In this document: piece by piece, positions 2,678 to 46,568 of the stretch
Layout: each line of letters begins with the position of its first letter
Numbering within the stretch: the first letter of the stretch is position 1
Assembly (NCBI GenBank): GCA_016125585.1
Contig: WGLL01000015.1
Coordinates: 47,668-111,667 of the forward strand
Direction of reading: 5' to 3'
Source of the DNA: Caulobacter sp.
GTDB taxonomy: Bacteria; Pseudomonadota; Alphaproteobacteria; Caulobacterales; Caulobacteraceae
DNA length: 64,000 nucleotides
Translations under genes and position numbers: made by a program
Notes under the pieces: model-generated
Database searches by the model: none
What the model saw: only the letters and a program-made list of their open reading frames with translations
What the model was told of the DNA's origin: nothing

Positions 2678-3913
2678 TCAGCCCCGCGAGAGTCCCAACT
2701 GGATCACATTGGTCCGCTCGCTGCGGAAGCCCGCCTCGCAATAGGCGAGGTAGAAGCGCCACAGGCGGCGGAACCGCTCGTCGAAGCCCTGGGCCCGCAC
2801 CTGGTCCCACACCGCGTCGAAGCGGTGCAGCCACTGGTTCAGGGTGTCGGCGTAGCACTGGCCGAAGCGGTTGACCCCGGTCCAGTCGAGGCCGGCGCGG
2901 TCGGTCTGTTCCTTCAGCTTGCCCTCGCTGGGCAGCATGCCGCCGGGGAAGATGTACTTCTGGATGAAGTCGGCGTGGCGGCGGTAGTGGTCGAAGAACT
3001 CGTCGCGGATGGTGATGATCTGCAGGCCGGCGCGGCCCCCGGGCGACAGCACCTCGTGGATCTTGCCGAAATAGGTCGGCCAGTATTCCTGACCCACCGC
3101 CTCGAACATCTCGATGGAGGCGACCCGGTCGAAGCGGCCGTCCACGTCGCGGTAGTCGATCAGCTGGATCTTCGCCTTCTCGGCCAGGCCGGCCTTGAAC
3201 AATCGCTCCCGGGCGTAGTCGTACTGGGCCTGGGAGATGGTGATGCCGGTCACGTTCGCCCCGACCTCGCGGGCGGCGAACTCGGCGAACCCGCCCCAGC
3301 CGCAGCCGATTTCAAGAACCGTCTGATCGGGCTTCAGGTCGATGGACCGGGCCAGGGCCGCATACTTCTCGTGCTGGGCGGCTTCCAGCGGCTGGTCGGC
3401 GCTTTCGAACCGGGCCGAGGAGTAGGTCATCGACGGGTCGAGCCACAGCTCATAGAAGCTGTTGCCCAGGTCGTAATGGGCGTGGATGTTCTTCCTCGCC
3501 CCCTCGCGGTCGTTGCGCCGCATCAGGTGGACGATGAAGTTGTAGGCCTTGACCAGAGGATTGCCGGCCATGATCCGGCCGATCTGATCGAGGTTGAAGG
3601 TGAAGGCGGTCAGCAGGGCCGGCAGGTCGGGGGTGTCCCATTCGCCGGCCATATAGCCCTCGGCGAACCCGATGTCGGCCGCCGACATCACCCGGCCGAT
3701 GGCCCGGTAGTCCCTGACGATCAGCTCGGCGGTCGGCCCGGCCTCGCGGCCGCGGAAGGTGAGCCGGCGTCCGCTCGGCATCACGACGTCAAGATTGCCC
3801 GTCGTCCAGTTGGTCCGGAGCACCTTCATGGCCGTGCGGAAGGTCGCCGGCGCGGCCCTGAAGTCAGGCGCTTCCCAGTCGGACGAGGTGGCGTTCACGG
3901 CGAATTCGCTCAT
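2678..3913 (-). CDS. cfa: Cyclopropane-fatty-acyl-phospholipid synthase family SAM methyltransferase (CfaS/UfaM-like)
   Basis: NIHAHYDLGNSFY, MTYSSA, VLEIGCGWG, SIEMFEAVG, FIQKYIFPGGMLPS, YLAYCEAGF. Start placed at ATG 3913, which has GAGGAG upstream. Confidence 0.92.
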   Translation of the reverse strand: MSEFAVNATSSDWEAPDFRAAPATFRTAMKVLRTNWTTGNLDVVMPSGRRLTFRGREAGPTAELIVRDYRAIGRVMSAADIGFAEGYMAGEWDTPDLPALLTAFTFNLDQIGRIMAGNPLVKAYNFIVHLMRRNDREGARKNIHAHYDLGNSFYELWLDPSMTYSSARFESADQPLEAAQHEKYAALARSIDLKPDQTVLEIGCGWGGFAEFAAREVGANVTGITISQAQYDYARERLFKAGLAEKAKIQLIDYRDVDGRFDRVASIEMFEAVGQEYWPTYFGKIHEVLSPGGRAGLQIITIRDEFFDHYRRHADFIQKYIFPGGMLPSEGKLKEQTDRAGLDWTGVNRFGQCYADTLNQWLHRFDAVWDQVRAQGFDERFRRLWRFYLAYCEAGFRSERTNVIQLGLSRG

Positions 3914-3997
3914 CTTCGCTCCTCTGACTTTGCTGAAGTTTAACACTGTTTTGCGGTTGCGCGACCCCCGGTCGGGCAACCTGGGGGCGCCCCTGGG

Positions 3998-4876
3998 TCA
4001 GGCGGCGGCGGATCGGGGCCGGACCTTGTCGATCGGGCCGGCGGGACGTTTGCAAGGCGCCGCCCCCCGCGAGGCCTCGCCGCGGCTCGCCGACGCCCTG
4101 GGGCCGGGCGGTCTGGCGCCGAAGGGCGCGCCCTTCAACCACAGCCGCAGGGCCTCCCAGTGAATGGCCAGCACCACCTTGGCCGTCATCAGGGGGATGG
4201 ACCAGAACAGCGCCGCAAGCTTTTGATCACAAAGCGTTTCGCGGCGGGCTTCCTGGGTGGCGACGAAGTCAGGCTGGCCGTCGACGGCCTTGACGATGGT
4301 CATGTCGAAGGTCTCGCCCGGGGCGGCGATATCGAAGCGATACTCCCCCTCGACCTTGTAGAAGGGAGAGACATAGAGGCGCTTGGTCGCCCGCTGTTGC
4401 TCGCGCGCCGCGCCGCTGGCGGGGATCACATAGGCATGGGTCTGGCCGAAGGTGTTGTTGACCTCATAGACCACTGCTTCCAGCCGCCCGTCGCCGCCAT
4501 GAACGAAGAAGATCGACAGCGGATTGAAGACAAATCCGAGCACCCGGGGAAAACACAGCAGCCTGATGCTCGTCGCCTCGGCCGCGACGCCGGCCTCCCG
4601 CAAACGGGCCGTCACCCAGGGCCGCAGCGAGGCGGTCTGGCGGTCGCCATGGTCGCGGGGCTCAAAGCTCATGACCCCGAAGCGCCCCGGCCGCATCAGC
4701 CTCAGGCCGGAAAGGGCCGTGTCGAGACGGTCGATATCGATCAGGATCTGGAACAGGCGATAGCGGAAGGCGTGGGGCCGGGGGGCGAAGCGCTTGTGCC
4801 AGGTGCTGCCGACATAGAGGCAGGCCGGGGGGAGGCAGGCCGGCGGGAGACAGGCCGGAGAGGCGAAGGGGCTCAT
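3998..4876 (-). CDS. DUF1365 family protein (UfaO-like)
   Basis: LYVGSTWHKRFAP..HAFRY, LLCFPRVLGFVFNPLS, YEVNNTFG, YVSPF. ATGA overlap with the upstream gene. Confidence 0.88.
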   Translation of the reverse strand: MSPFASPACLPPACLPPACLYVGSTWHKRFAPRPHAFRYRLFQILIDIDRLDTALSGLRLMRPGRFGVMSFEPRDHGDRQTASLRPWVTARLREAGVAAEATSIRLLCFPRVLGFVFNPLSIFFVHGGDGRLEAVVYEVNNTFGQTHAYVIPASGAAREQQRATKRLYVSPFYKVEGEYRFDIAAPGETFDMTIVKAVDGQPDFVATQEARRETLCDQKLAALFWSIPLMTAKVVLAIHWEALRLWLKGAPFGARPPGPRASASRGEASRGAAPCKRPAGPIDKVRPRSAAA

Positions 4877-6183
4877 GCCGCCTCGACCTTCGGCGGCGCC
4901 GTCGTGCGGCCGTCAAAGCTGGCGACCCGATGATCAACGAAGTCCCAGGGCACGCGGCCGCCCAACTCCAGGGCGACCTTGACCCCCGAGGTGACCCCGT
5001 CCTCGTGGAAGCCGTAGCCCAGCCAGGCGCCCGCATACCAGACTCCGCCGCGGCCCTGGATGCGGCCGATGCGGCGCTGGGCGGCGAGGGCCGGGGTGTC
5101 GAACTGGGGATGGTCGTAATCGAACTCGGCGATCACCAGGGCCGGGTCGGCGGACGGTCCATTGAGGGTGACAAACAGCGGCTCTGGGGTCTCGAGCATC
5201 TGCAGGTTGTTCATCCAGTAGGTGACGTAAGGCGTTGAAGTTGCTTTGCCATCGTTGATGTAGTTCCAGCTGCCCCAGGCCTGTTTGCGGCCAGGCATCA
5301 GGGCCGGATCGCGATGCAGAACCGCCTTGTTGGGGGCATAGCGCACGGCGCCGAGGAAGGCTCGCTCCTCGGGGTCGGCGTCGGCCAGCAGGCGCAGGCT
5401 CTGGTCGGAGTGGCAGGCGAGGATGACCTGGTCGAAGCGTGCAACCCCGCCGGCGCTGTCTTCAATCATCACCCCGCGCGGGTCCCGCCAGATGCGGCGG
5501 GCGCCGGTCCCCAGCCGCACCCGGTCGCCGAGGATGGCGGCGATCCTGTCGACGTAGGTCTGGCTGCCGCCGACCACCGTCTTCCACAGCGGCGGCGTGA
5601 ACTGCAGCAGCCCATGGTTGGACAGAAACCTGAGGAAGCTTTCCGCCGGGAAATCGCCGATCCGGCCCTCGGTGGTCGACCAGATGGCCGCGCCCATCGG
5701 CAGCAGATAGCGGTCGCGGAAGCCTTCGCAGAAGCCTCTCAGCTTGAGATAGGCCCCCAGGGTCAGATCCTTCAGATCGGCCTTGAGCAGGTCATTGCGC
5801 GCAAGATCATTGAACCGGCGGATGTCATTGAGCATCCACAGGAAGGAAGGGTTCAGCAGATTGCGCTTCTGGGCAAAGACCCCGCGCGGAAAGTTCGACG
5901 ACCACTCCACCCCGCCGCCGGCGCAGGCAAAGCTCATATCGGTCACCTTGGTCTCGACGCCCAGGCTGTCGAGCAGGCCGACGAGGTTGGGATAGTTGCT
6001 CTCGTTGTAGACGATGAAGCCGGTGTCGACCGCCACGGCCTCGCCGGCGCAGTCCACCACCACGGTATTGGCGTGACCGCCCAGCCGGGTTTCCTTCTCA
6101 TAGAGCACGACATCATGCGCGTCTTTCAACGCCAGGGCCGCGCCCAGACCCGAGACTCCCGAACCGATCACCGCGATCTTCAC
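4873..6183 (-). CDS. FAD-dependent oxidoreductase, amine-oxidase family (UfaD-like fatty acid desaturase)
   Basis: KIAVIGSGVSG, RLGGHANT, VDTGFIVYN, YDHPQF, GAWLGYGFHEDG. GTGA overlap with the photolyase gene. Confidence 0.88.
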   Translation of the reverse strand: MKIAVIGSGVSGLGAALALKDAHDVVLYEKETRLGGHANTVVVDCAGEAVAVDTGFIVYNESNYPNLVGLLDSLGVETKVTDMSFACAGGGVEWSSNFPRGVFAQKRNLLNPSFLWMLNDIRRFNDLARNDLLKADLKDLTLGAYLKLRGFCEGFRDRYLLPMGAAIWSTTEGRIGDFPAESFLRFLSNHGLLQFTPPLWKTVVGGSQTYVDRIAAILGDRVRLGTGARRIWRDPRGVMIEDSAGGVARFDQVILACHSDQSLRLLADADPEERAFLGAVRYAPNKAVLHRDPALMPGRKQAWGSWNYINDGKATSTPYVTYWMNNLQMLETPEPLFVTLNGPSADPALVIAEFDYDHPQFDTPALAAQRRIGRIQGRGGVWYAGAWLGYGFHEDGVTSGVKVALELGGRVPWDFVDHRVASFDGRTTAPPKVEAA

Positions 6184-7652
6184 TTGGGCGTCTCTCCCTG
6201 CCGAGTGGCCCTCAGGGCCGAATAGGCCTCCAGCGCGCGGTCACGGGCCTTGCCGTGGTCGACGATGGGGTCCGGATAACGCGGACCGGATGGATGGTCT
6301 TCCGCCGCGAGCAATTCAGATACGTCGCTGTGGGGGAGGTGGATGACCTTGGTTGGCAAATTCCGCAGTTCGGGGACCCAGCGGCGGATGTATTCGCCGT
6401 CGGGATCGAACTTCTGGCCCTGGGTGACAGGATTGAAGATGCGGAAATAGGGAGCGGCGTCGGCGCCGGATCCGGCGACCCACTGCCAGTTGGCGGCGTT
6501 CTGCGCCAGATCGGCGTCCACCAGCGTATCCCAGAACCAGGCCTCGCCCCGCCGCCAGTCGATCATCAGGTCCTTGATCAGGAAGGAGGCGGCGATCATC
6601 CGTACACGGTTGTGCATGAAGCCGGTGGCCCACAATTCCCGCATGCCGGCGTCGACGATCGGATAGCCGGTCCGGCCCCGGGTCCAGGCGGTGAAGGCCG
6701 CCTCGTCGTCCCGCCATTCGAAGGCGTCCCACTCCGGCCGGAAGTTCTTAGTCGCCAGGTCCGGATTGTAGAACAGCAGGTGGTGATGGAATTCCCGCCA
6801 GCCCAGTTCGGACAGGAACTTGTCGACCTGGCGCTCGCTGGCGCCGCGGGCGGCCGCGTCCTGGGCGGCGCGCCAGACCTGCCGCGGGCCGATCTCGCCA
6901 AAGTGCAGGTGCGGAGACAGCCGGGACGTGCCGTCGCGGTCGGGGCGGTCGCGATCGTCGCTGTAGGATTTGATCGCATCGTCGAGAAAGGCCTCCAGGG
7001 CCTCCCGGGCGCCGGCCTCTCCCGGGGCCCAGTCGCCAAAGCCGTCCGACCAGTCCGGCGAGGTCGGATGCAGGCCCCAACTGTCGAGATCATCGCTGTC
7101 AGGCCAGGTTTTGGGGGCGGTCAGACCCTCCGGCGCCGGGTCCGGCGACACCGCGCCGATCCGCTCCCGCGCCGTCCGCCAGTAGGGCGTGTAGACCCGG
7201 TAGGGGTCCCCCGACCCGTTGGCGATCGTCCAGGGCTCGTTCAGCAGGGCGGCGTTGAAGGAGCGGCACGAGATCCCCGCGTCCGTCAGGCGACTCTTGA
7301 GGGCCTTGTCACGCTCGATCACCGCGCCGTCGTAGAGCCGGTTCCAGCACACCGCGCCGGCGCCGGTTTCCTCGACCAGCGCCTCCAGCACCCGCGCCGC
7401 CTCGCCACGGCGCAGGATCAGCCGCGAGCCGCGCGCCTCCAGGTCGGCGGCCAGGGCCCGCAGGGACTTGTCCAGCCACCACAGCGACGCCCCGCCCGGC
7501 GGACGGATCCCGGGCGTCTCATCGAGAATGTACACCGGGATGACCGGTCCTGACGCCGCGGCCGAGAGCGCCGGGTTATCGGCCAGTCTCAGGTCCTGGC
7601 GAAACCACATCAGGGTCGGCGGGGCGGGGGTGTTGGGCTTTGACGTCGTCAC
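6180..7652 (-). CDS. phrA: Deoxyribodipyrimidine (CPD) photolyase
   Basis: MWFRQDLRLADNPAL, TSRLSPHLHFGEI, GRTGYPIVDAGMREL..TGFMHNRVRM, WQWVAGSGADAAPYFRIFNP. Start inferred at GTG 7652; the longer ORF-track start overlaps hldE. Confidence 0.92.
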   Translation of the reverse strand: MTTSKPNTPAPPTLMWFRQDLRLADNPALSAAASGPVIPVYILDETPGIRPPGGASLWWLDKSLRALAADLEARGSRLILRRGEAARVLEALVEETGAGAVCWNRLYDGAVIERDKALKSRLTDAGISCRSFNAALLNEPWTIANGSGDPYRVYTPYWRTARERIGAVSPDPAPEGLTAPKTWPDSDDLDSWGLHPTSPDWSDGFGDWAPGEAGAREALEAFLDDAIKSYSDDRDRPDRDGTSRLSPHLHFGEIGPRQVWRAAQDAAARGASERQVDKFLSELGWREFHHHLLFYNPDLATKNFRPEWDAFEWRDDEAAFTAWTRGRTGYPIVDAGMRELWATGFMHNRVRMIAASFLIKDLMIDWRRGEAWFWDTLVDADLAQNAANWQWVAGSGADAAPYFRIFNPVTQGQKFDPDGEYIRRWVPELRNLPTKVIHLPHSDVSELLAAEDHPSGPRYPDPIVDHGKARDRALEAYSALRATRQGETPK

Positions 7653-7657
7653 GAGGG

Positions 7658-7686
7658 CGATACGGTCTGGGGCGACGGCCGGATCA
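7658..7686 (-). promoter_or_regulatory. SigE(RpoE-ChrR)-type ECF promoter of the phrA operon
   Basis: Minus strand reads TGATCC-N18-TATCG, 5 nt upstream of the phrA GTG. This matches the TGATCC -35 element of the singlet-oxygen SigE regulon, whose known targets include phrA and cfaS. Confidence 0.7.
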
Positions 7687-7764
7687 CCGCAACCGGCGTT
7701 GCATGGCCTTGATGGAGGATCAATTCTTGACCGCCCCCACGTCAAAGAGCACAGCCTGACCTTT

Positions 7765-9228
7765 ATGGAACTGGCCGGTCTGCAAAACCTTCTGGACGCT
7801 GTAACGGGCGCGCGGGTCGCCTGCGTCGGCGACGTCATGATCGATCGCTTCGTCTATGGCGAGGTCAGTCGCACCAGCCCGGAGGCCCCGGTTGCGGTGC
7901 TGGCTCTCGGCCGGGAGTCGGTGATGCTGGGCGGGGCGGGCAATGTGGCGCGCAACGTCGCCGCGCTTGGCGGCAAGGCGGCGCTGGCCGGGATGATCGG
8001 CGACGATCCGGCCGGTCGCGAGGCGCTTGGCCTGATCGGCGGCGAGCCCGGGATGGAAAGTCATCTGGTCACCGACGCGGCGCGGCCGACGACGGTCAAG
8101 ACCCGCTATGTCGCCGCCGGGCAGCAGCTGCTGCGGGTCGATTCGGAAGACCCGGCTCCGGCGACGCGGGACACGGAAAACAGGATCGCCGCCGCGGCCC
8201 GCTACGCCGCCGAGGGCGCCGGGGCCATCCTGCTCTCTGACTACGGCAAGGGCGCCGTGACGCAGAAGGTGATCGAGGCCTGCCTTGAGGCCCGCGCCGC
8301 GGGGGCGGTGCTGATCGTCGACTCCAAGGCCCGCAGCTTTGCCCGCTATGGCGCCGCCGATCTGGTCAAGCCCAATGCCTCCGAACTGGCCCGGGCGACC
8401 GACCTGCCGACCGAGACCGACGAGGAGGTCGAGGCGGCGCTTAAGCACGCGCTGGAACTGTCCCGCTGCAAGGCGGTGCTGGTCACCCGCGCCGCCAAGG
8501 GCATGAGCCTGGCCGTGCGCGGGGAGGGGGTGCGCCACTATCCGGGACGCCCCCGCGAGGTGTTCGACGTGTCCGGCGCCGGCGACACCGCCCTGGCCGC
8601 CCTGGGCCTGGCCCTGGCGGCCGGTCAGTCGATTGATGACGCCGTCACCTTCGCCCTGCTGGCCAGCGGCGTGGTGGTCGGCAAGGCCGGCACCGCCACG
8701 GCGACCCCGCGAGAGCTGGTCGAGGCCGAGATCGCCGCCCATCTGGCCCCGGCCGAAGCCAAGCTGGCCAGTCCGGCGCAAATGGCCGCCCAGGCGGCCG
8801 CCTGGCGCAAGAAGGGCCTCAAGGTCGGCTTCACCAACGGCTGCTTCGACATTCTCCACAAGGGCCATGTCGCCTATCTGGCCCAGGCCCGGGGCTGGTG
8901 CGACCGGCTGATCGTGGCGGTCAACAGCGACAGCTCGGTCAGGGCCCTCAAGGGCGAGGGCCGGCCGGTCAATGACCTGGAATCCCGCGCCGTGGTGCTG
9001 GCGGGCCTGGCCCATGTCGATTTGGTCACGGCCTTCGACGAGGAAACCCCCATCGAGCTGATCCGCGCCGCCCGCCCCGATGTGCTGATCAAGGGCGCCG
9101 ACTACACCGTCGAGGGCGTGGTCGGTCATGAGGAGGTTCTGGGCTGGGGCGGCGAGGTCAGGCTCGCCCCCCTGGTCGACGGCTATTCCACCACCGCCGC
9201 CATCGCCCGCATGACCGCTAAGAACTGA
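7765..9228 (+). CDS. hldE: Bifunctional heptose-7-phosphate kinase / heptose-1-phosphate adenylyltransferase
   Basis: VGDVMIDRF, SPEAPV, GGAGNVARN, DVSGAGDT, TNGCFDILHKGH, GYSTT. Confidence 0.93.
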   Translation: MELAGLQNLLDAVTGARVACVGDVMIDRFVYGEVSRTSPEAPVAVLALGRESVMLGGAGNVARNVAALGGKAALAGMIGDDPAGREALGLIGGEPGMESHLVTDAARPTTVKTRYVAAGQQLLRVDSEDPAPATRDTENRIAAAARYAAEGAGAILLSDYGKGAVTQKVIEACLEARAAGAVLIVDSKARSFARYGAADLVKPNASELARATDLPTETDEEVEAALKHALELSRCKAVLVTRAAKGMSLAVRGEGVRHYPGRPREVFDVSGAGDTALAALGLALAAGQSIDDAVTFALLASGVVVGKAGTATATPRELVEAEIAAHLAPAEAKLASPAQMAAQAAAWRKKGLKVGFTNGCFDILHKGHVAYLAQARGWCDRLIVAVNSDSSVRALKGEGRPVNDLESRAVVLAGLAHVDLVTAFDEETPIELIRAARPDVLIKGADYTVEGVVGHEEVLGWGGEVRLAPLVDGYSTTAAIARMTAKN

Positions 9229-41327: not shown

Positions 41328-41488
41328 CGGGCCGTTCAAAAGGCGCCATTGCGCCCACCCCTTCTATTTGGCAAACACGGGCGTCTTTTCGCAACGGGCG
41401 GATTCCGCCCGAGCAAGAAGGGGGTCTGGAAGCCGCGTGCGTCGCGGGCCAAAGCCTCCCGTGCAAGGAAACAAGGGGCGCTTTTCAT

Positions 41489-43621
41489 ATGACTACCGAC
41501 AACTTCCTTCTGCTCGCCATGGGGGCCGGCGTTCTCGCCGTTCTCTATGGCGTGTTCCAGACCATGGCGCTGATGCGCAAATCGCCGGGCAACGCCCGGA
41601 TGCAGGAAATCGCCGCGGCCATTCAGGAAGGCGCCCAAGCCTATCTGAACCGCCAGTACGCCACGATCGGCATGATCGGCGCGGTCATCCTGATCGCCCT
41701 GTTCTTCCTGCTCGGCCTGTATCCGGCCATCGGCTTCGCGGTCGGCGCGGTGCTCTCGGGCGCCGCCGGCTTCGTCGGCATGCTGATCTCGGTCCGGGCC
41801 AACGTCCGCACCGCCCAGGCCTCCTCGGAGAGCCTCGGCAAGGGTCTGTCGGTCGCCTTCACCTCCGGCGCCATCACCGGCATGCTGGTCGCCGGCTTCG
41901 CTCTGCTGGGCGTGGCGGGCTACTACTTCTTCCTGACCAAGGTGGTCTCGGTTGAGCCCCGCGCGATTATCGACAGCCTCGTGGCCCTGGGCCTCGGCGC
42001 CTCGCTGATCTCCATCTTCGCCCGTCTGGGCGGCGGCATCTTCACCAAGGGCGCCGACGTCGGCGGCGACATGGTCGGCAAGGTTGAAGCCGGCATCCCG
42101 GAAGACGATCCCCGCAACGCGGCCACCATCGCCGACAACGTGGGCGACAATGTCGGCGACTGCGCCGGCATGGCCGCCGACCTGTTCGAGACCTATGCGG
42201 TGACCACGGTCGCCACCATGGTCCTGGCCTCCATCCTGTTCGCGGGTGAAACCGCCACCAATATGATGATGCTGCCGCTGGCCATCTGCGGCGTCTGCAT
42301 CGTCACCTCGATCATCGGCACCTTCGCCGTGCGTCTGGGCAAGTCGCAGAACATCATGGGCGCTCTCTACCAGGGCCTCATCGTCACCGGCGTCCTGTCG
42401 GTGCCGGCCGTTTACTGGGTCATCAACAGCCTGGTGCCCGCGGCGGGCGTCGAAATCGGCGGCATCCTGCGCAGCCAGATGGACCTGTTCTGGTGCGGCA
42501 TGGCCGGCCTGGTCGTCACCGCCCTGATCGTGGTCATCACCGAATACTACACCGGCACCGGCTTCCGCCCGGTCCGCTCGGTGGCCCAGGCTTCGGTTTC
42601 CGGCCACGGCACCAACGTCATCCAGGGCCTGGCCATGAGCCTGGAAGCCACCGCGCTTCCGGCCCTGACCATCATCGTCGGCATCGTCGTCACCTACCAG
42701 CTGGGCGGCCTGTTCGGCATCGCCGTGGCCACCACCACCATGCTGTCCCTGGCCGGCTTCATCGTCGCCCTGGACGCCTTCGGTCCGGTCACTGACAACG
42801 CCGGCGGCATCGCCGAAATGGCCGGTCTTCCCCCGGAAGTCCGCGTCACCACCGACGCCCTCGACGCCGTCGGCAACACCACCAAGGCCGTCACCAAGGG
42901 CTATGCCATCGGTTCGGCCGGTCTCGGCGCCCTGGTGCTGTTCGCCGCCTATACCCAGGACCTGAATTTCTTCGCCGGCATCGCCGAGCCGGGGACGTTC
43001 TTCCACGGCCTGGGCGAGGTCGCCTTCGACCTGTCCAACCCCTACGTCGTCGTCGGTCTGCTGTTCGGGGGGCTGCTGCCCTTCCTGTTCGGCGGCATGT
43101 CGATGACCGCCGTGGGCCGCGCCGCTGAGGCGGTGGTGCATGAGGTTCGCCGTCAGTTCCGGGAAAACCCCGGCATCATGACCGGCGAGGTCAAGCCCGA
43201 GTATGGCAAGGCCGTGGACATCCTGACCAAGGCCGCGATCCGCGAGATGATCGTGCCGTCGCTGCTGCCGGTCGTCTCGCCGGTCGCCCTGTTCTTCATC
43301 CTCGACGCCATCACCACCCGCCAGAACGCCTTCGCCGGCCTCGGCGCGATGTTGATGGGGGTGATCGTCACCGGTCTGTTCGTCGCCATCTCGATGACCA
43401 GCGGCGGCGGCGCCTGGGACAACGCCAAGAAGATCATCGAGGAGGGCTTCACCGACAAGGACGGCGTCCTCCACAGCAAGGGATCGGAAGCCCACAAGGC
43501 CGCCGTCACCGGCGACACCGTCGGCGACCCCTACAAGGACACCTCGGGGCCCGCCGTGAACCCGATGATCAAGATCACCAACATCGTCGCCCTGCTGCTG
43601 CTGGCCATCCTGGCGCACTAG
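41489..43621 (+). CDS. hppA: Membrane H+-translocating pyrophosphatase, K+-independent type
   Basis: [36 protein letters not shown] (Lys determinant), [14 protein letters not shown]. Confidence 0.96.
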
Positions 43622-43646
43622 GCTTCGGCTCTGGTTGAAATGCGGA

Positions 43647-43676
43647 CGCCCCGGAGAGCAATCTCCGGGGCGTTTT
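43647..43676 (+). terminator. Intrinsic terminator after hppA
   Basis: CGCCCCGGAGA-GCAA-TCTCCGGGGCG followed by TTTT. Confidence 0.8.
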
Positions 43677-43776
43677 GCATTTCCCCATCAGGGAAGGGCG
43701 GGCGCCGCTCTCCCAATTCCATTGGAGCCCGGCCCCGCGGCGGGCCATACTTGCCTCCGGGCGAGAGGAGTGAGGG

Positions 43777-44388
43777 TTGGACCGGGAGGCCGACAACAGG
43801 GCGAAGGGGGCAGGGCCACGCGGCATCGACGAGGCCCTCGACACCATGCTCGCCGACACCCACGGCAAGGATCACATTCGGATCGGCGACATTCTCGACA
43901 CCTTCGGCCGTCAGGCGTTCGGCCCCCTGATCCTGGTCCCGGCGGTCCTCCTGACCCTGCCGACCGGCGCGCTCCCGGGCGTGCCGCTGGTGCTGGGCGC
44001 CTTCATCGCCGTCATCTGTTTCGAGATCGTGCTGGGGACCCACAAGCCGACCATCCCGCGGCTGTTCTCCCGCCTGAAGATGAAGCGGCAATCGGTCGTG
44101 AAGGCGCGTCAGGGCGCCGACGGGATCATCGGCTTTGTCGACCGGCTGATCCGGCCGCGCCTGACCTTTCTGGTCGGGCATCCGTTTCTGGAGATCATCG
44201 CGGTGATCTGCATCGCGCTTTGCATGCTGCTGTTGCCGCTGGAATTCGTGCCCTTCGCCACCGCCATCCCCGGGACGGTCCTCATCCTGATGGGTCTGGC
44301 GATCACCGCCAGGGACGGCCTGCTGGCCATGCTTGGCCTCATCTCCGCCGGCGGCGCAGGGGTCGGCGCCTGGGCGATGCTGTCCTGA
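43777..44388 (+). CDS. exoD: ExoD family membrane protein
   Basis: GDILDTFGRQAFGPLIL, LP...PG, PLE.VPF...IPG. Confidence 0.85.
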   Translation: MDREADNRAKGAGPRGIDEALDTMLADTHGKDHIRIGDILDTFGRQAFGPLILVPAVLLTLPTGALPGVPLVLGAFIAVICFEIVLGTHKPTIPRLFSRLKMKRQSVVKARQGADGIIGFVDRLIRPRLTFLVGHPFLEIIAVICIALCMLLLPLEFVPFATAIPGTVLILMGLAITARDGLLAMLGLISAGGAGVGAWAMLS

Positions 44389-44489
44389 CGTCTCCGGCGC
44401 CGGCGCTCTTGGGCGGGAGCCGGCGGACGCCATTGCGGGCTACTCCCACGCGAAAACCTCGGGTCCGGCCCCTGCCTTTGGCGGCCGAT

Positions 44490-44582
44490 CTACGGTCGCC
44501 GCCGAATGGCCCATATGACTTGCGCCACGGCGGCGATGAGGACGGCGAAGCCTGCGAGAAGCGTGGGGGTCAAAATGATCAT
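44490..44582 (-). CDS. 30-aa single-TM peptide MIILTPTLLAGFAVLIAAVAQVIWAIRRRP (not in the ORF track)
   Basis: Translated by hand. ATG 44582 overlaps the TGA of the upstream gene (ATGA); the hydrophobic core is followed by RRRP. Confidence 0.65.
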   Translation of the reverse strand: MIILTPTLLAGFAVLIAAVAQVIWAIRRRP

Positions 44583-45139
44583 AGCGAAAAAACATCCACG
44601 TCTTTCTTCCAAACGAGCCCCGCCAGTTCGGCGGCCTTCTTGAGGTACCGCTTCACCTCATCGGAAGAATTGTTCGTCGCTGCGTACCAGCCGGGCTTCA
44701 ATTCCGCCGAGAATTGCTGAGCCTGCTTTCGATTGTCGTAGAGATCTTCTGGTTGGCGGGCGACGGGCCGCTTGGACCTGGGGCGATAGCTTGCCAACTT
44801 GTCCAGTGTGCCGGGCCTCGCATCCTCCAGCTGCCGCATTCCACCCAGCCATGCCGCTTTCCATGACTTAAACTCGGTACGGGATCCCAGCAGTTCGAAG
44901 AATACCGAGCCCGTCCTTCGGCCAGCGACTTGGTCAAAATGCACGGCAGGAGCGGAGACGATTTCGTCTCCATCCAGCCTAGTAAGTCGTTCCAAGCCGA
45001 AATCGAACTCGAAGCGGGCAACAGGGTAGTTTCCCGCTAGCCAACGATCTTGGACAATCCAGACGGTGAATGATGGGTGGTCAGCAGCCAGGCTCGTCAT
45101 AGCCGCTGCGGCGTTTGAAATCTTTGCGACGCGGGCCAT
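44579..45139 (-). CDS. Orphan lower-GC protein; C-terminal half resembles a SeqA-C-like DNA-binding domain
   Basis: GAGGGAG RBS 7 nt upstream; spot counts of two 60-nt blocks give 53-57% GC; C-terminal motif KRPVAR.PEDLY...LKPGWY..TNNS. Confidence 0.7.
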   Translation of the reverse strand: MARVAKISNAAAAMTSLAADHPSFTVWIVQDRWLAGNYPVARFEFDFGLERLTRLDGDEIVSAPAVHFDQVAGRRTGSVFFELLGSRTEFKSWKAAWLGGMRQLEDARPGTLDKLASYRPRSKRPVARQPEDLYDNRKQAQQFSAELKPGWYAATNNSSDEVKRYLKKAAELAGLVWKKDVDVFSL

Positions 45140-45146
45140 CGCCTAA

Positions 45147-45194
45147 CTCCCTCACAATATCCTTATAAGCGCTTATAAGGATATTGTGAGGGAG
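45147..45194. repeat. Perfect 48-bp palindrome with no spacer
   Basis: CTCCCTCACAATATCCTTATAAGC|GCTTATAAGGATATTGTGAGGGAG, checked base by base. Confidence 0.95.
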
Positions 45195-45260
45195 CCGCAA
45201 GCCAGGTTTCCTCCTTTCAAAGCAGGCGATATTCTTCGAGCTTTCCGATACACCCCCGCC

Positions 45261-46568
45261 ATGTCCGACCTCTTCGCCGCCTCCGGCCTCACGCCCCACG
45301 CGCCCGCGCCGCTGCCAGAGCGGCTGCGGCCCCAGACCCTCGACGATGTCGTCGGTCAGGAGCATCTGCTGGGGCCGGGCGGGCCGATCCGCCGCATGGT
45401 CGACGGCAATCGGCTGGCCTCGATGATCCTCTGGGGCCCGCCAGGCACCGGCAAGACCACCATCGCCCGCCTGCTGGCCAAGGCGGCCGGCTATGAATTC
45501 CAGCAGCTTTCGGCCGTCTTCTCCGGCGTCGCCGACCTGAAGAAAGCCTTCGAACAGGCCCGCATGCGCCGCGCCGCCGGCCAGTCGACCCTGCTGTTCG
45601 TCGACGAGATCCACCGCTTCAACCGCGCCCAGCAGGACGGCTTCCTGCCCTTTGTCGAGGAGGGCGTCATCACCCTGGTCGGCGCCACCACCGAAAACCC
45701 CAGCTTCGAGCTCAACGGGGCGCTGCTCTCCCGCTGTCAGGTCTTCGTGCTTCGCCGTCTCGATGATGACGCCCAGCGAAACCTCCTGGCCAAGGCCGAG
45801 ACGGTCGAGGGCCGTCCGTTGCCGGTGGATGACAATGCCCGCGAGGCCCTGATCGCCATGGCTGACGGCGACGGCCGCTATCTGCTGACCCTGGCCGACA
45901 CCCTGCTGGGCCTCGACTTTCCGCAGCCCCTCGACACCGCCGGTCTGGCCCAGGTGCTGCAGAAGCGCAGCCCCGCCTACGACAAGGACCGGGAGGGCCA
46001 CTACAACCTGATCTCGGCCCTGCACAAATCGGTGCGCGGTTCGGATCCCGACGCCGCCCTTTACTGGCTGGCGCGGATGCTGGACGGCGGCGAGAACCCG
46101 CTGTTCCTGGCCCGCCGGCTGGTGCGGATGGCGAGCGAGGATATCGGCCAGGCCGATCCCCTGGCCCTGGTCATCGCCAACGCCGCCAAGGACGCCTACG
46201 ACTTCCTCGGCAGCCCGGAAGGCGAGCTGGCCCTGGCCCAGGTCGTGGTGCACCTGGCCGCCGCCCCCAAGTCCAACGCCGTCTACAAGGCCTTTGGCGA
46301 GGCGAGGAAGGCGGCGAAGGAGACCGGCTCCCTGACGCCCCCGGCCCACATCCTCAATGCCCCGACCGAGCTGATGAAGGACATCGGCTACGGAAAGGGC
46401 TACGCCTACGACCCCGACACCCCCGAAGGCTTCTCTGGCCAGAACTACTTTCCCGACGGCATGGAGCGCCGCACCTTCTACCGACCCAGGGGAGACGGCG
46501 CCGAGGGCCGGATCAAGGAGCGCCTCGAACGCTGGGCCGCCATGCGGGACGCCAGGCGTGAAGGGTAG
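45261..46568 (+). CDS. rarA: Replication-associated recombination protein A (RarA/MgsA)
   Basis: [49 protein letters not shown]. Confidence 0.96.

Follow-up and report, generated by a model that had tools for sequence, protein, structure and literature searches.

The locus described here lies in a 64,000-nucleotide (nt) stretch of DNA from Caulobacter sp. (assembly GCA_016125585.1, contig WGLL01000015.1), which is called the window in what follows and to which all positions refer unless another locus is named. On the minus strand, the segment 44490-45194 carries, in reading order, a 48-bp palindrome, an open reading frame (ORF) of 186 amino acids (aa) and a 30-aa hydrophobic ORF. In an initial annotation, this segment had been described as a three-part module of lower GC content, in which the palindrome contains the ribosome-binding site and the small ORF overlaps the end of the 186-aa ORF as ATGA. 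All these features were found where they had been placed, and the GC content over 44500-45250 is 0.53-0.59, against 0.65-0.72 (about 68%) in the flanks. Analysis of the protein, of its relatives and of the DNA in front of their genes led us to another partition: the locus is best read as a two-part unit made of a SeqA-like gene and its own promoter, the -10 element of which is embedded in a probable operator, CCTTATAAGG.

When the 186-aa protein was submitted to a word-based homologue search, two relatives only were obtained. Exhaustive searching with phmmer returned 324 representative clusters at E<1e-3, 114 of them at E<1e-10, most of which are 185-210 aa long; the protein, initially taken for an orphan, is thus a member of a family. 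No match to it was found in Pfam (E<=1), PADLOC, PHROGs or NCBIfam. The AlphaFold2 (AF2) model of the protein has a mean predicted local distance difference test score (pLDDT) of 92.9 and was divided into a small N-terminal domain, a linker and a C-terminal domain (Table 1). In the family alignment, the C-terminal module is strongly conserved, with the pattern PGTLEKLS...R(S/T)KR(I/P)VAR...L(F/Y)...GWWxGTNNSxxE...WLxRAxxxAGL. Residues 1-60 gave no structural match in the PDB (Foldseek) or in BFVD, and SeqA_N was not matched in Pfam by this domain, either in the window protein or in family members. By analogy with SeqA, we propose that the N-terminal domain may serve in oligomerisation.

The C-terminal half of the protein resembles the DNA-binding domain of SeqA. 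When the AF2 model was compared with the PDB by Foldseek, the top five matches were all SeqA (SeqA-DNA complexes and V. cholerae SeqA), with probabilities of 0.72-0.99, TM(target) scores of 0.39-0.62 and a best root-mean-square deviation of 2.1 Å over 89 columns; nothing besides SeqA rose above noise. In Pfam, 12 of 60 family members matched PF03925 weakly (best E 1.3e-4). Furthermore, a 545-aa relative, P0083, matches residues 70-182 of the window protein with an E-value of 1.7e-13, and its equivalent segment scores 35.9 bits with PF03925, for a gathering score of 25.5. Alignment with E. coli SeqA by hhalign paired RTKR with GRTR and GWWxGTNNS with PYWVITNTNT; in the window protein, the motifs R121-S-K-R124 and T155-N-N-S158 are aligned with SeqA G115-R-T-R118 and T149-N-T-N152. 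The SeqA segments G115-R-T-R118 and PYWVITNTNT are its two DNA-contact segments. Together, the weak PF03925 matches, P0083, the Foldseek ranking and the hhalign alignment sustain the label "SeqA-C-like" given earlier to the protein, and a predicted SeqA-C fold for its C-terminal half is supported.

The same domain was observed in other contexts among distant relatives. It is fused to an HSDR_N PD-(D/E)xK nuclease in P0117, in P0118 and in two tandem paralogues of genome G053. The latter (locus L017, G053:C1:704000-718000, at 5208-6314 and 6589-7845) encode proteins of 368 and 418 aa in which HSDR_N is associated with a SeqA-C-like C-terminus that has KNR or KHM in the place of TNN. A repeated segment of about 190 bp stands in front of each gene, and no CCTTATAAGG motif was found upstream; these proteins could be restriction-like enzymes. 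SeqA domains are modules of restriction-modification (R-M)-type proteins (PMC4738411). In another alphaproteobacterial genome, of 1.5 Mb, locus L018 (G220:C1:175000-184000, at 4208-4852) codes for a protein of 214 aa that is SeqA-N-like at its N-terminus and SeqA-C-like at its C-terminus; on either side of its gene lies a copy of a 133-aa gene, the two copies being near-identical (3539-3940 and 5035-5436).

The second part of the unit is a short palindromic motif located in front of the gene. Loci were sampled by scanning GTDB species genomes with a degenerate DNA pattern for GW...TNN...E...A...A, which gave 35 loci. True family members are encoded at 25 of them, all in Alphaproteobacteria (hosts include Caulobacter, Brevundimonas, Sphingomonas, Mesorhizobium, Acetobacteraceae, Rhodospirillales and Dongiaceae), and the addition of metagenomic loci brought the number of family loci to 30. 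At nearly all of these loci, CTTATAAG, CTTACAAG or CTTGTAAG occurs in one to three copies within about 100 nt 5' of the start codon, the usual form being CCTTATAAGG. Exact 8-mers were counted 38 times in 3,640 nt of upstream DNA, against 5 times in 192,590 nt elsewhere in the same loci, a difference of about 400-fold. At least one exact copy is present in 24 of 28 loci (the start codon of one, L034, having been corrected), and the remaining four carry degenerate versions. The two closest homologues (43-44% identity) also carry the motif upstream. The earlier suggestion of a symmetric site associated with a putative, autoregulated DNA reader thus gained support from the predicted SeqA-C fold and from the presence of CTTATAAG upstream of 24 of 28 members.

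In 17 of 23 loci, a TTGAC-like -35 hexamer lies 16-18 nt 5' of the TATAAG of the motif, with the ATG 30-43 nt later; it follows that the motif overlaps the -10 element of a sigma-70-type promoter. It appears, however, to be more than a -10 element. In the alignment, read by eye, the core is preceded by C and followed by G, each in about 19 of 23 loci, and such symmetric flanks are not explained by a -10 alone. Some family sites are longer perfect palindromes, e.g. GCTTCCTTATAAGGAAGC and CTTCCTTATAAGGAAG, and where the motif is repeated, the extra copies are situated on or upstream of the -35, between the two hexamers, or close to or beyond the start site; of the 11 loci with two sites, 7 have them 19-20 bp apart. 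In addition, the proteins encoded at loci L006 and L012 have TNNN..QTT instead of TNNS..ET, and their promoters contain CTTAAG, CTTGCAAG or CTTACAAG cores and no CTTATAAG. These two cases are a hint that the recognition loop and the core may covary.

The genome that contains the window holds three copies of CTTATAAG, two of which are at this locus, and each of eight carrier genomes holds zero or one copy of CCTTATAAGG. On these counts, a host regulon for the site was rejected. No avoidance of the site in carrier genomes is claimed, the motif being rare throughout the class (0-2 copies in most large genomes).

At the window locus, the motif takes the form of the perfect 48-bp palindrome, which consists of two family cores, CTTATAAG, and the outer arms of which mirror the 5' untranslated region (UTR) and Shine-Dalgarno sequence of the gene. 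No comparable palindrome was obtained in 100 shuffles of the window. It is present once in the whole 3.96-Mb genome, and a repetitive extragenic palindromic (REP) sequence or a miniature inverted-repeat transposable element (MITE) was therefore rejected as its identity. It has no T-run and the terminator scan was negative; an intrinsic terminator was rejected as well. Two overlapping candidate promoters can be read on the minus strand: P1 combines TTGCGG (45195-45200), a spacer of 17 nt and the TATAAG of the distal core, and P2 combines CTCACA (45185-45190), the same spacer length and the TATAAG of the proximal core. From either of them, transcription would start within the downstream arm of the palindrome, nearer the ATG. 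By symmetry, an identical -35/-10 arrangement is present on the plus strand, directed at rarA. A consensus promoter scan called no promoter at the palindrome. We read the palindrome of this strain as a duplicated form of the operator/promoter element of the family, and its perfect symmetry would be best explained by inverted duplication of a promoter-operator-Shine-Dalgarno segment.

The distribution of the gene was then considered. One of 25 genomes of the genus and 3 of 401 genomes of the class contain it. In 25 of 27 loci, its GC content is lower than that of the surrounding DNA, the mean difference being 8.4 points. The 147 ORFs flanking 26 other family loci fall into 144 Pfam families, none of which is present in more than three loci and most of which are housekeeping; a conserved neighbour gene was rejected on this basis. 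An integrase family was matched by two of these flanking ORFs. At L006 (598-3815; also at L007-L009), the family gene is part of a small integrative element in which a tyrosine integrase gene, an AlpA-like gene and four small ORFs come before it, an arrangement that shows one mobility route. At L012 (1016-2256), it is followed by an 87-aa ORF and then by the gene of a 315-aa TIR_2/Y4lF-domain protein, the sole defence-like neighbour among about 30 loci. No family member was found in IMG/VR by pattern scan or in INPHARED and PLSDB by tblastn, and no structural match was found in BFVD; on current sampling, a phage or plasmid origin was rejected. The family gene behaves as one that moves horizontally and alone, taking its promoter and probable operator with it.

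The genomic setting in the window is in keeping with this behaviour. In the closest relative (G019, rarA DNA 90-91% identical), the H+-pyrophosphatase gene hppA, its terminator, about 50 nt and rarA follow one another, i.e. the site is empty. Homology with the relatives ends at 43675 on the left and restarts at 45244-45259, at or just before the ATG of rarA. The entire 1.58-kb interval is therefore strain-specific, and the islet has replaced the native upstream region of rarA. In agreement with the initial annotation, the flanking genes were identified as ExoD-family and rarA/mgsA, and no integrase (window ORFs, Pfam), no transposase and no convincing flanking direct repeats were found at the islet between hppA and rarA. 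The exoD-like gene, which had been counted with the host-like flanks, turned out to be strain-specific and not core: it is accessory because it shares only 30-34% identity with the exoD paralogues of the relatives, and at other loci it is not linked to the 186-aa family. A second relative, G440, has a different content at the same junction (a 358-aa gene and a 175-aa ORF). The junction between the hppA terminator and rarA (window 43645-45260) is a hot spot of variable genes.

Three further observations concern this region. In G440, the 358-aa gene is bracketed by a duplication of the hppA 3' end and terminator, with about 80 bp repeated and, in addition, a 62-residue C-terminal fragment of hppA (L066, G440:C1:1876500-1880600, at 1541-1621 and 2913-2990). 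In the window, the rarA frame is open upstream as far as a GTG at 45186 within the palindrome (plus strand, 45186-45260), which gives a 460-aa ORF; homology with the relatives begins only at the ATG at 45261 (MSDLF...), and a pipeline could annotate a falsely extended rarA. Finally, we do not count as a gene a 760-aa ORF antisense to hppA (41336-43618, minus strand), since long spurious ORFs of this kind are typical of high-GC genomes.

Table 1. Features of the window locus and of its immediate surroundings
Feature	Position	Strand	Evidence or remarks
hppA intrinsic terminator hairpin	43645-43676	plus	Kept in relatives; left edge of the variable site
Strain-specific islet (exoD-like gene, SeqA-like gene, small ORF)	43677-45256 (about)	.	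blastn/tblastn against G019 and G440
ExoD-family membrane protein gene	43777-44388	plus	PF06055, E 9e-40; accessory; start codon uncertain
30-aa hydrophobic ORF, MIILTPTLLAGFAVLIAAVAQVIWAIRRRP	44490-44582	minus	ATG overlaps the TGA of the 186-aa ORF as ATGA; unique to this locus
186-aa coding sequence, unannotated alphaproteobacterial family with SeqA-like architecture	44579-45139	minus	ORF list, phmmer, AF2
Predicted SeqA-C-like DNA-binding domain, residues about 72-186	44582-44926	minus	Foldseek, Pfam, hhalign
Linker, residues about 61-71	44927-44959	minus	Low pLDDT (58); relatives insert 0-40 Pro-rich aa here
N-terminal domain, residues 1-60	44960-45139	minus	Helix 7-20 and four strands; near-invariant G36, D46, E50
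Perfect palindrome, 48 bp	45147-45194	.	Arms 45147-45170 and 45171-45194, 24/24 complementary, zero spacer
Shine-Dalgarno-like GAGGGAG	45147-45153	minus	Final 7 nt of the palindrome, 7 nt 5' of the 186-aa ATG
Proximal CTTATAAG core	45162-45169	.	Sequence reading, family motif; 10 bp from the distal core
Distal CTTATAAG core	45172-45179	.	Sequence reading, family motif; 8-bp palindrome by itself
rarA/mgsA	45261-46568	plus	PF12002, E 4e-65; core gene

From these results, we consider it probable (about 0.6) that the locus encodes an autorepressed, horizontally acquired and solitary protein of SeqA-like architecture which would bind DNA site-specifically. The following scheme is proposed. First, the protein would oligomerise through its N-terminal domain. 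Then, each C-terminal domain would contact one CTTATAAG core by means of the R-(S/T)-K-R and T-N-N-S loops, and paired cores on the same face of the helix, which are separated by 10 bp in this strain and in most cases by 19-20 bp in relatives, would be occupied together. Occupied cores would occlude the -10/start-site region, and in this way the gene would repress itself. In the strain studied here, the inverted duplication would also point a mirror-image promoter at rarA, which lost its native upstream DNA to the islet. Since near-perfect sites in the genome are found only in the promoter of the gene itself, any other targets would be foreign DNA, or weaker or modified sites; that foreign DNA or modified sites are targets is speculation.

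Several points weigh against this scheme. The binding of the protein to the motif is something we infer, and the selective value of a gene whose sole evident target is itself is unexplained. Part of the conservation of the motif, which overlaps a -10-like hexamer, could reflect promoter function, and some copies are separated by 15-18 bp, a spacing unfit for same-face binding. Concerning the fold, the window protein lies below every Pfam threshold, the gathering score of PF03925 being reached only by the distant P0083; the Foldseek E-values are weak (0.05-0.4), the hhalign probability is low (E 0.015 for one pair), and the family profile matched nothing at E<=10 among PDB sequences. The N-terminal domain has no detectable relative, and its role in oligomerisation rests on the analogy with SeqA. 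Lastly, the micropeptide stands out statistically, with a chance of 0.18-1.8% for each ATGA site (see below), and its dismissal may be wrong.

Among the alternatives, the motif might be a promoter and nothing else: the family would carry a mobile strong -10 element, the palindrome would have been selected as a divergent promoter for rarA, and the protein would bind elsewhere or non-specifically. The TTGAC-N16-18-TATAAG architecture of most loci agrees with this view, as does the same -35/-10 arrangement on both strands of the palindrome, and rarA needs a promoter, the islet having replaced the DNA upstream to its ATG. However, neither the symmetric flanking C and G nor longer perfect palindromes such as CTTCCTTATAAGGAAG are promoter features, and extra copies lie upstream of the -35, in the spacer and downstream of the start site. 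A G at the last position of the -10 is unfavourable for sigma-70, the consensus scan finds no promoter here, and the hint of covariation with the TNNS loop points to the protein. A role as promoter only is thus considered unlikely.

It is similarly improbable that this one gene acts by itself as a restriction-like or exclusion factor. In that case, incoming DNA would be recognised by the SeqA-C-like domain at a site, either as such or by its methylation or hemimethylation; the N-terminal domain, in which D46, E50 and R74 are near-invariant, would act as a small nuclease or other effector, and binding to its own promoter would only set the dose. Such a function would fit the pairing of the domain with an HSDR_N PD-(D/E)xK nuclease in distant relatives and the R-M-type proteins that contain SeqA domains (PMC4738411). 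It would also fit the patchy distribution, the low GC content, the singleton islands at variable sites and the lack of a host regulon. On the other hand, searches of Pfam, the PDB (Foldseek) and BFVD gave no nuclease or enzymatic fold for residues 1-60, no conserved lysine or histidine is present to complete a catalytic motif, PADLOC gave no match, and sixty residues are few for a nuclease domain.

The initial annotation had interpreted the segment as a three-part autoregulated defence, abortive-infection or addiction cassette. On this model, the DNA reader would have a sensing or regulatory role and the coupled 30-aa peptide would be the toxic effector, in a layout resembling that of type II toxin-antitoxin operons. 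The small ORF itself lends some credit to this proposal. It overlaps the end of the 186-aa ORF as ATGA and would form a single, strongly hydrophobic helix followed by a basic RRRP tail, and 24 of its 30 codons, counted by eye, end in G or C. Among the 25,192 ATGA sites of this genome, 0.18% open a 25-60-aa ORF of comparable hydrophobicity and 1.8% open any ORF with such a hydrophobic segment. The islet is strain-specific and at a variable site, toxin-antitoxin operons typically have an autoregulatory palindrome, a TIR-domain gene adjoins one family member, and distant relatives are fused to a PD-(D/E)xK nuclease.

The comparison between loci, however, does not retain the peptide in the unit. 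A scripted scan of the 29 other loci found no hydrophobic ORF on the same strand beginning near the stop codon of the family gene, and no small membrane-like ORF within 400 nt on either strand. Loci L072-L074 were added later and read by eye: L074, which encodes a 44% identical protein, has a terminator 3' of the gene and no coupled ORF, and the sequence of L072 ends 19 nt beyond the stop codon. The coupled small ORF is therefore a feature of one family locus out of 30, and of the palindrome and small membrane ORF expected to accompany homologues, the first was shared, as a motif, by 24 of 28 loci and the second by none of the 29 others. The peptide had no match in Pfam, PADLOC, PHROG or NCBIfam and could be assigned to no known toxin family. 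A homologue search with it returned nothing, which is weak evidence, short ORFs being rarely annotated, the 30-aa query being too short and a 40-aa version with a TTG start having no shared words. The ORF could encode a genuine small protein particular to this strain, or it could have arisen by chance in the 3' UTR; it does not belong to the family unit.

With respect to function, PADLOC-DB v2 gave no family at E<=1 for either ORF, no effector domain and no conserved neighbour were found, and the neighbours at other loci are housekeeping genes. Moreover, the peptide was picked after the whole window had been read, so that the probability per site overstates its significance. A defence or addiction role for the locus is unsupported, and the cassette is regarded as quite unlikely. 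We hold equally doubtful a combined view in which the protein is an alphaproteobacterial counterpart of SeqA acting as a single-gene exclusion or defence device, which in this strain would have recruited the coupled membrane peptide as an effector. It is just as questionable that the device would be a self-repressed, dose-limited oligomer that sequesters or marks incoming DNA through CCTTATAAGG-like sites or their methylation state. If true, an exclusion device with a coupled membrane peptide would be a previously undescribed defence or addiction architecture.

Finally, it is very unlikely that the palindrome acts as RNA, through a 24-bp hairpin in the 5' UTR that would mask the Shine-Dalgarno sequence and prevent translation for as long as it was not melted or cleaved: a fully transcribed palindrome is indeed predicted to fold at -44 kcal/mol (z = -8.1) with GAGGGAG included, but the family -10 lies inside the motif and would place the start within the downstream arm, so that this hairpin would not form in the mRNA, and other family members have the motif without a long hairpin.

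Thus, an autorepressed SeqA-like protein and its operator remain our preferred reading, of which the SeqA-C fold and the autoregulatory operator logic are already known. We found no paper on the 186-aa family or on its motif in bacteria; in the libraries and literature searched, the family, its N-terminal domain, its alphaproteobacterial distribution and the conserved CCTTATAAGG site are undescribed. In the usual view, SeqA is a replication regulator of gammaproteobacteria that is linked to Dam, and its predicted DNA-binding fold and domain layout are now met in a rare, mobile and unannotated alphaproteobacterial family. The sequences suggest that members of this family read a 10-bp palindrome in the promoter of their own gene. 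The pairing of protein and site would be unusually clean, with a near-unique site per genome that is conserved across proteins only 30-40% identical, and a new orthogonal repressor-operator pair could be derived from it, as could a model for specificity change in the SeqA fold. In addition, a false lead is removed, the membrane micropeptide and the "defence cassette" not being features of the family.

The locus can be compared with several known systems. The 30-aa ORF resembles the membrane toxins of the Hok, Ldr and TisB class in being a single hydrophobic helix with a basic tail, and differs from them in that no sequence homologue was found and it is not conserved in the family. Nuclease and modified-DNA-reader fusions (DpnI-like type IV enzymes; SeqA/RAMA fusions, PMC4738411) recall the distant C-domain relatives fused to HSDR_N PD-(D/E)xK; unlike type IV or modification-dependent enzymes, the 186-aa family has the reader domain and no recognisable nuclease domain.

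The controller C-proteins of R-M systems and the type II antitoxins offer a parallel in layout: a palindromic operator, putative here, over the -10/start region of the gene itself, two adjacent sites, and a gene that travels with its operator. In contrast, the predicted fold of the family is SeqA-C and not helix-turn-helix, ribbon-helix-helix or AbrB, and no adjacent restriction enzyme, methyltransferase or toxin is conserved. Type II toxin-antitoxin systems are recognised by a conserved, co-oriented adjacent pair and a palindromic site on their own promoter. Here, the small ORF accompanies the gene at 1 of 30 loci, and the palindromic site is present on the promoter, where the protein would bind it.

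The last comparison is with SeqA itself (E. coli, V. cholerae; PF03925; 1LRR, 3FMT, 3SK7). The N-terminal domain of the family is predicted to be one helix with four strands and not the SeqA_N fold, the hosts are alphaproteobacterial, and the candidate site CCTTATAAGG contains neither GATC nor GANTC. The site is located on the promoter of the gene and not genome-wide; the gene is accessory, rare and foreign-looking, and the window protein scores below the Pfam threshold. The C-terminal DNA-binding fold is nevertheless predicted to be common to both, the two DNA-contact loops align in position, and in both a flexible linker joins a small N-terminal domain to a C-terminal reader. SeqA uses paired GATC sites, and the paired short palindromes predicted for the family, one to three helical turns apart, would be their parallel.

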